Shown: positions 62,787 through 64,000 of the stretch, piece after piece
Layout: each line of letters begins with the position of its first letter
Numbering within the stretch: the stretch's first letter is position 1
Sequence record: NC_014467.1
Strand: one strand, 5' to 3'
From: Escherichia phage RB16
DNA: 64,000 bases
The notes under the pieces: generated by a model
Told to the model about the DNA's origin: nothing
What the model saw: the letters and a program-made list of their open reading frames with translations, nothing else
Database searches by the model: none
Position numbers and translations under genes: made by a program

Positions 62787-63530
62787 ATGATTGATGTAAT
62801 TCGCGTCAAACTCCCTTGTGGGGTAAAACGTTTTCCGATGTTCACTGTACGCGATCAGTTGAGTTTCTTGCTCACCAGCGCGGATATGGAAGGGAAAACA
62901 TTAACAGAACAGCAGCAGATCCTTGATGAAATTTTAGATATTCTTTATCCGGGTTATTCAAAAACCGAACAGGAAAATATATTCACTAAGGTTTATTGTG
63001 TATCGTTTGGTAAGAACGTCATTAAGATCCGAATCAAAAACAAAGACAGTTACACAGAAACATTCATGCAGGTCAAAGACTATGAATTGCAGAATGAATA
63101 TGCTCTTGATGATTCTCTGACCCTGGGGTTCCGGTTCCCAAAACACAGAAAGAGCAGTGAAGAATTGTTCCTTGAATGTATCCAGTATGTCAAGCAAAAT
63201 GATACCCGTTATGAATGGGAAGCACTCGACGAAGACACGAAGAATGCTATACTTGATTTGGTATCTATCACCGATATGGAAAACATTGTGAAGATGTTAC
63301 GTAAATCCTGTCATGTTGTCGTTCGCGACCTTGAATTCAGTGATTTGCTTACCCTTTACAAGATCCTGTTTAACAAATCAGAATTGAATGAGTTCTTCAA
63401 GACAAACTATTTGTTAAATAAGAATGAAGTACATATTGAACCTATCATGAATGCAAGCCCGATGGAACGGTCAATTTACGTTGCAATACTGGCAGAAGAT
63501 TTAAAACAGAGACAAAATACAAATGCGTAA
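62787..63530 (+). CDS. hypothetical protein (late-gene region)
   Basis: 247 aa; RBS GAGG; preceded by hairpin AAGGGGC-GTAA-GCCCCTT. Confidence 0.45.
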   Translation: MIDVIRVKLPCGVKRFPMFTVRDQLSFLLTSADMEGKTLTEQQQILDEILDILYPGYSKTEQENIFTKVYCVSFGKNVIKIRIKNKDSYTETFMQVKDYELQNEYALDDSLTLGFRFPKHRKSSEELFLECIQYVKQNDTRYEWEALDEDTKNAILDLVSITDMENIVKMLRKSCHVVVRDLEFSDLLTLYKILFNKSELNEFFKTNYLLNKNEVHIEPIMNASPMERSIYVAILAEDLKQRQNTNA

Positions 63531-64000
63531 ACATACTCCAAAGCATATCCAAAAATATAATGTGACTTATCGCCCGTTGACTATTGGTGATGTGAATGAC
63601 ACGGATAACTTCATTTTAGAAGGGAAGGTGTTTAAGCATCAACGCGATTATGTGTATCTTATGGCCTTGTTTGATTCAATCAATACAGATACTGTCGACC
63701 TACAAATCAAGTGTCCTGATTGCGGTGAACTGATTAAGTTCACGTTAAACCGTCATCATATCATGATTGACGAGTTCGAAGAAAAACTCTTCGGTAATGA
63801 AATTAAAATTGCGGTCAGCCCGTATGTTACCGGAAAAGAAGAATTACCGGATCTGATTAAGTTTGTTGTCATCGACGGCGAACAAATCTTATGGGAAGAC
63901 TGCAAAGAGTCAGAAAAGGAAGCGGTGTTAGATAGCATCGACTATCCGGTCTTTAAATCGATAAATACCGCGCTGGAAGCCCCAGCAATGGTCGCAAACA
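63523..64000 (+). CDS. hypothetical protein with CPDCG zinc-ribbon-like motif (3' partial, runs off window)
   Basis: Open frame from ATG 63523 to window end (over 159 codons, no stop); overlaps upstream stop by 8 nt. Confidence 0.4.
   Translation, partial: MRKHTPKHIQKYNVTYRPLTIGDVNDTDNFILEGKVFKHQRDYVYLMALFDSINTDTVDLQIKCPDCGELIKFTLNRHHIMIDEFEEKLFGNEIKIAVSPYVTGKEELPDLIKFVVIDGEQILWEDCKESEKEAVLDSIDYPVFKSINTALEAPAMVAN

Follow-up and report, generated by a model that had tools for sequence, protein, structure and literature searches.

The two open reading frames (ORFs) that follow gene 54 in Escherichia phage RB16 (NC_014467.1) are very probably the RB43-type orthologues of T4 genes 51 and 26, encoding paralogous T4_baseplate proteins that would aid the assembly of the central hub (gp5-gp27-gp29, with gp28). 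The window analysed is a stretch of 64,000 nucleotides, and both ORFs adjoin on its plus strand, the second being cut by the window edge (Table 1). The initial annotation, whose coordinates for the two ORFs (247 aa, and more than 159 aa with a CPDCG motif) we confirmed, had described them as unknown; by sequence comparison they are orthologues of T4 gp51 and gp26, already annotated in RB43-type records, and homology to gp51 or gp26, which that annotation had named as the finding that would speak against it, was obtained for both genes. Its accompanying suggestion that they may be divergent baseplate-assembly factors proved correct.

On the basis of BLASTP and profile matches, the 247-aa ORF is the orthologue of T4 gp51. 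The alignment with the T4 protein runs end to end (residues 1-238 versus 1-247, 28% identity, E=4e-29), and the match to T4 gp26 in BLASTP was not significant (E=0.69). The protein scored 111.5 bits against Pfam PF12322 (T4_baseplate; curated gathering cut-off, 24.5 bits) and matched phrog_150 ('baseplate hub') with E=4e-52, while its residues 154-245 matched phrog_634 ('baseplate hub assembly catalyst') with E=2.1e-10. It is thus laid out as a T4_baseplate domain (residues ~1-195) in which four cysteines have been lost, plus a gp51-specific C-terminal module (~199-246) that the AF2 model (pLDDT 90.1, pTM 0.86) builds as three helices (199-246). Since all the near-invariant residues found among 17 orthologues (N207, P225, E227 and R228) are in this module, and since it is the sole part kept in cyanophages, whose gp51 retains only the C-terminal part (Sullivan et al. 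2010, PMC3037559), we consider that the three-helix module is probably the working part of gp51.

The ORF that starts with the ATG at 63523 overlaps gene 51 by 8 nt and continues for 159 codons to the end of the window. In phages with 99.3-99.9% identity along this stretch the protein is 185 aa, which would place the stop at about 64080. Homology and gene context identify it as the orthologue of T4 gp26. The full-length gp26 of RB43 and IME-CF2 gave E=5e-8 with T4 gp26 and 2e-4 with T4 gp51, and the PF12322 score was 84.5 bits for the window fragment and 114.8 bits for full-length RB43 gp26. The protein also matches phrog_150 'baseplate hub', stops where the PF12322 profile ends (position 219) and has no gp51 C-terminal module. 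Gene 25, which here would lie beyond the window, directly follows 26 in the same orientation in RB43, IME-CF2, Lw1, Banach, KMI9, phiEap-3 and T4. The AF2 model of gp26 had a pLDDT of 89.2 and a pTM of 0.79. The start methionine of T4 gp26', an internal in-frame product, faces a gap in the alignment of RB43-type gp26 proteins.

The locus as a whole is closely related to phages in the databases. A megablast search of a phage collection with positions 61800-64000 matched 62 records, with DNA identities of 99.9% for Citrobacter phage IME-CF2 and 99.1-99.3% for RB43, Miller and CfP1 (RB43, 99.3%), all four belonging to Pseudotevenvirus (Straboviridae); by this measure the window is that of an RB43-like Pseudotevenvirus. 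The gp54/gp51 junction was recovered as a single contiguous match in 175 phage records. Upstream of it, the ORF at 61896..62759 is 35% identical to T4 gp54 (E=2e-48) and matches Phage_T4_gp19 in Pfam. In the RB43 record (AY967407; Nolan et al. 2006, PMC1524935) the corresponding genes are annotated, in order, as 48, 54, 51, 26 and 25, with the product names 'gp51 baseplate hub assembly catalyst' and 'gp26 baseplate hub subunit'. The same order is present in IME-CF2, Lw1 and Banach (Pseudotevenvirus) and in KMI9 and phiEap-3 (Slopekvirus), and gp51 and gp26 are annotated as such in RB43, Lw1, Banach, KMI9 and phiEap-3. Both genes and their order are already known from the RB43 GenBank record described in 2006, and the result removes a false flag of "unknown genes" but is otherwise ordinary.

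Both ORFs are under purifying selection (dN/dS of 0.07-0.09 in the comparisons with Lw1 and Banach; 0.03-0.04 for gp54), and are therefore real, constrained genes and not chance ORFs. Two minus-strand ORFs (62958-63197 and 63756-63938), antisense to genes under such strong purifying selection, were taken as spurious. Rfam returned for 61500-64000 nothing but a chance miRNA match (E=0.26). The window also displays mosaicism: its gp28 (58455-59033) matches the protein of Cronobacter phage GAP161 at 100% identity and that of RB43 at only 89.5%, and across 54-51-26 (61800-64000) the identity is 99.3% with RB43 and about 83% with the Cronobacter leB group. Gene 29 (tape measure; 59030-60781) is a single ORF of 583 aa, and AY967407 carries two 'hypothetical proteins' (ORF103w and ORF104w) in its place; the split in the RB43 record is probably a frameshift or sequencing error, or an indel.

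The gene order in T4 is 25 and 26 (minus), then 51, 27, 28, 29, 48 and 54 (plus), followed on the opposite strand by alt.-3, alt.-2, alt.-1 and alt, which bears out the statement of the initial annotation that alt sits after gene 54 in that phage. The order in the window is 27 (minus), then 28, 29, 48, 54, 51, 26 and 25 (plus), the last as seen in relatives. RB43 is known to break synteny with T4 (Nolan et al. 2006, PMC1524935), and 51-26-25 are found after 54, rather than alt, because the gene order of the RB43 lineage has been rearranged. Gene 27, on the minus strand, diverges from 28 (57289-58454), whereas 27 and 28 are co-oriented and overlap in T4. That the two products could be injected, host-modifying proteins replacing Alt, as had also been proposed, would follow from nothing except their position after gene 54. 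This reading lacks support and its probability is practically negligible: tblastn of T4 Alt against the whole window found no homologue (best E=0.61, elsewhere in the window), Pfam detected no ADP-ribosyltransferase domain in either gp51 or gp26, and the two genes, besides their clear orthology, share a strand and are tightly coupled with the baseplate genes 54 and 25. The T4 gene map is thus an unsafe template for RB43-type genomes.

Profile comparisons indicate that gp51 and gp26 are themselves paralogues within the T4_baseplate family. The gp51 and gp26 profiles aligned in hhalign with 99.0% probability (E=3e-18), and the whole PF12322 profile is covered by T4 gp51 as well as by T4 gp26. 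In the AF2 models the order of secondary-structure elements is the same from a long helix onwards (gp51, 59-74; gp26, 38-53), the gp51 model having in addition two N-terminal and three C-terminal helices. No NCBIfam model matched either protein and no solved structure resembled them; PDB sequence searches gave no match for gp51 and, for gp26, only chance matches to viral nucleoproteins (E at least 0.017). The fold was seen only among baseplate-cluster proteins of T4-like phages.

The CPDCG motif of gp26 (residues 64-68) is the first half of a four-cysteine site. The cysteines C64, C67, C164 and C166 were invariant in 14 gp26 sequences, T4 included; C164 and C166 lie past the end of the window and were read in IME-CF2 and RB43 (DNA identity of 99.3-99.9% in the part they share with the window). 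The AF2 model has both pairs at the turns of beta-hairpins (strands 57-63/70-76 and 155-163/169-175) in a zinc-ribbon arrangement, and on this model gp26 probably binds a structural zinc ion through C64, C67, C164 and C166. In the window gp51 the CxxC is replaced by KNKDS and the second pair has been deleted (~10 residues). Neither pair was present in any of the 26 gp51 homologues that share at least 58% identity with the window protein, which come from Pseudotevenvirus, Slopekvirus, Yersinia phage JC221, Pantoea phage Phynn and Pectobacterium phage POP12. The CxxC and C..C pairs do occur in T4 gp51 and in nearly all of 12 distant full-length gp51 proteins (24-35% identity; one is without the first pair). 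From this distribution we infer that the gp51 of the RB43/Slopekvirus clade has lost the site. The four cysteines are thus common in gp51 and do not define it, the gp51 of cyanophages being devoid of the whole domain.

For zinc-ribbon proteins with four cysteines one could also imagine nucleic acid as the target in place of the hub, with the regulation of late expression as one example. One metagenomic gp26 homologue is automatically labelled 'transcription elongation factor Elf1' and there is a weak Pfam match to Zn_ribbon_Com (E=0.015), but all such matches were below significance, the fold is confined to proteins of the baseplate cluster, T4 genetics puts 26 and 51 in hub assembly, and the RB43/Slopekvirus-clade gp51 does without the cysteines altogether. 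We regard a role on nucleic acid as highly improbable.

A third relative may be encoded nearby. A six-sequence profile of gp28 (gene 28, 58455-59033) was collinear with the combined gp26 and gp51 profile over 107 columns (hhalign, 80.6%, E=1.3e-5), and the motif E-(F/L)-L-L-I-H-L is common to gp28 and T4 gp26. Pfam hmmscan gave no T4_baseplate match for gp28 even at E<=10, and membership of gp28 in that Pfam family, unsupported by hmmscan or by single-sequence hhalign and signalled by the profile-profile score only, was not adopted. Judging from that score, gp28 may be a remote, cysteine-less relative of gp26 and gp51. It is conceivable, though we hold it only tentatively, that gp26, gp28 and gp51 form one paralogous family built on a fold that contains a zinc ribbon, in which gp28 lost the metal site long ago and the RB43/Slopekvirus gp51 lost it independently, and in which the coupled gp51 and gp26 may act as a pair. 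If this were true, the independent loss in RB43/Slopekvirus gp51 would mean that gp51 can function without the metal site. Only two details of this analysis are new, the loss of the gp51 cysteines in the RB43/Slopekvirus clade and the possible remote kinship of gp28 with gp26 and gp51; their value is modest, but they could guide work on the roles of gp51, gp26 and gp28.

The function proposed for gp51 and gp26 in hub assembly is carried over from T4, in the case of gp51 at 28% identity, because no experiments were found for RB43-type phages. In T4, hub assembly requires both 51 and 26, with gp51 acting catalytically and not forming part of the completed particle (Leiman et al. 2010, PMC3004832, citing Snustad 1968 for gp51). 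That review classes both proteins as 'hub assembly chaperones' and notes that the evidence disagrees as to whether gp26 is retained in the hub; as late as 2022 their roles as chaperones or cofactors were still termed 'proposed roles' (Gonzales et al. 2022, PMC9024508). Apart from this mention, a literature search for proteomic studies of virions or more recent functional studies of gp51 and gp26 found nothing past the 2010 review. According to another view, gp26, and possibly gp51, would be a structural hub subunit that remains in the virion rather than a transient assembly factor. Older genetic work and many GenBank records do describe gp26 as a subunit of the hub, not as a chaperone, and the RB43, Lw1 and KMI9 records have it as 'baseplate hub subunit, essential'. 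Against this, Leiman et al. 2010 enter both proteins in the table of chaperones rather than with the tail components and state that the final particle contains no gp51, and later papers still treat the two as chaperones or cofactors, so that we consider a structural role unlikely and favour assistance in hub assembly.

Features of the junctions bear on how these putative assembly factors may be expressed. Genes 51, 26 and 25 come last in a block of genes sharing one orientation, 28-29-48-54-51-26-25. The gp54 stop codon is immediately followed by a hairpin (MFE -14.3 kcal/mol, z=-2.7) whose stem, GGGGC/GCCCC, is invariant in four lineages of two genera, while its loop varies (GTAA, TTTAT, GAAA, TACG); a constant stem with a changing loop points to selection on structure. 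Among the RB43 terminators predicted in the supplements of Nolan et al. 2006 (PMC1524935), TransTerm lists one as '54-->51' (RB43 64595-64608), and another follows gene 25. A simple terminator scan did not flag the hairpin because only four T follow the stem, and we believe that it may be a weak intrinsic terminator or attenuator, or else an RNA-stabilising hairpin. At the next junction, genes 51 and 26 overlap through ATGCGTAA in Pseudotevenvirus and ATGA in Slopekvirus, and genes 26 and 25 abut as TAA followed at once by ATG, also a conserved arrangement. The conserved overlap and abutment suggest translational coupling, which is probable for 51/26 and for which the 26/25 junction is likewise suggestive.

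No copy of the T4 late promoter consensus, TATAAATA, occurs anywhere in the 64-kb window, and the T4 rule therefore cannot place promoters here; a scan for sigma-70 promoters and terminators gave counts no higher than the shuffle level. For RB43, a late promoter was predicted just upstream of gene 28 (Pl:60263) and none inside the block (Nolan et al. 2006 supplements, PMC1524935). The hexamer TAAATA is rarer than expected in the window (17 found versus 45 expected), and the late baseplate block accounts for 7 of the 17 copies, six being in sense orientation. The copy in gp51 is at the same position in six of six phages of two genera, with varying synonymous sites on its flanks, and the one in gp48, 118-119 nt before the gp54 ATG, is likewise kept in all six phages, also of two genera, in a comparison where synonymous sites are near saturation. 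On this conservation, the gp48 and gp51 copies may be internal late promoters with a core shorter than that of T4. The copy in gene 26 was found in the four Pseudotevenvirus phages (4/4) and in neither of the two Slopekvirus phages (0/2). Back-to-back TAAATA motifs also occur in the 62-nt intergenic region between 27 and 28.

These elements could be combined as follows. Late transcription from the promoter that precedes gene 28 would extend into genes 51, 26 and 25, the hairpin behind gp54 would let less of this transcript through to them, and the gp51:gp26 ratio would be set by translational coupling. With only four T after the hairpin and the ribosome-binding site of gene 51 immediately beyond, the gene 28 promoter could drive 51-26-25 only by way of read-through. 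Gene 25 encodes a structural protein present in 6 copies per tail (Leiman et al. 2010, PMC3004832), yet is downstream of the hairpin, and a model in which less product is made after the hairpin hence needs an extra, conjectured promoter.

Table 1. Coordinates of the features described in the window (positions in the 64,000-nucleotide stretch).
Feature	Position	Strand	Remarks
Gene 54 (baseplate-tail tube initiator)	61896..62759	+	T4 gp54 match, Pfam, RB43 annotation
Hairpin GGGGC-GTAA-GCCCC, then TTTT	62758..62777	+	directly 3' of gp54 stop codon
Shine-Dalgarno GAGG of gene 51	62778..62781	+	5 nt before ATG; kept in 6/6 phages
Gene 51 (baseplate hub assembly catalyst/chaperone)	62787..63530	+	247 aa, ATG start
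TAAATA inside 3' end of gene 51	63415..63420	+	108-109 nt before gene 26 ATG; candidate late-promoter core (speculative)
ATGCGTAA, gene 26 start overlapping gene 51 stop	63523..63530	+	read from sequence
Gene 26 (hub assembly chaperone / 'hub subunit')	63523..64000	+	first 159 of 185 codons, cut by window edge
Codons C64-P-D-C67-G of gp26	63712..63726	+	first half of four-cysteine site
TAAATA inside gene 26	63962..63967	+	~119 nt before gene 25 ATG; candidate late-promoter core (speculative)
TAAATA copies in late block	60717, 61778, 63415, 63962 (+); 58415 (-); 58422, 58429 (+)		

Compared with the known T4 proteins, the window gp51 resembles T4 gp51 (NP_049802, 249 aa) in its PF12322 domain followed by the C-terminal gp51 module, in its near-equal length and in belonging to the hub gene cluster, but differs in the absence of the CxxC...C..C cysteines and in the deletion of ~10 residues at the second pair. 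Its gene is placed after 54 and directly before 26, whereas T4 51 precedes 27 and diverges from 26; here 51 and 26 share a strand and overlap. The second protein shares with T4 gp26 (NP_049801, 208 aa) the PF12322 domain, the four invariant cysteines and a gene directly upstream of, and co-oriented with, gene 25, and the C-terminal sequence RGLEAFLKVV corresponds to RGLKEFFELL in T4. It is 23 residues shorter than T4 gp26, with a reduced N-terminal helical part and a profile match restricted to positions 60-219. T4 gp28 (baseplate hub distal subunit, PF11110) is, like gp26 and gp51, small, required for the hub and encoded in the same cluster, although gp28 has no cysteine site. In the nearest relatives, RB43 ORF107w (gp51, AAX78629) and IME-CF2 AKR15940 are the same gene as the window 51, and RB43 ORF108w (gp26, AAX78630) and IME-CF2 AKR15939 the same as the window 26, the sole residue difference in gp26 being T55 in the window versus K55 in IME-CF2 and RB43. 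Finally, the window gp51 has its C-terminal module in common with the short gp51 of cyanophages and marine vibriophages (Sullivan et al. 2010); these are without the first ~200 residues, that is, the entire T4_baseplate domain, which the window gp51 retains.
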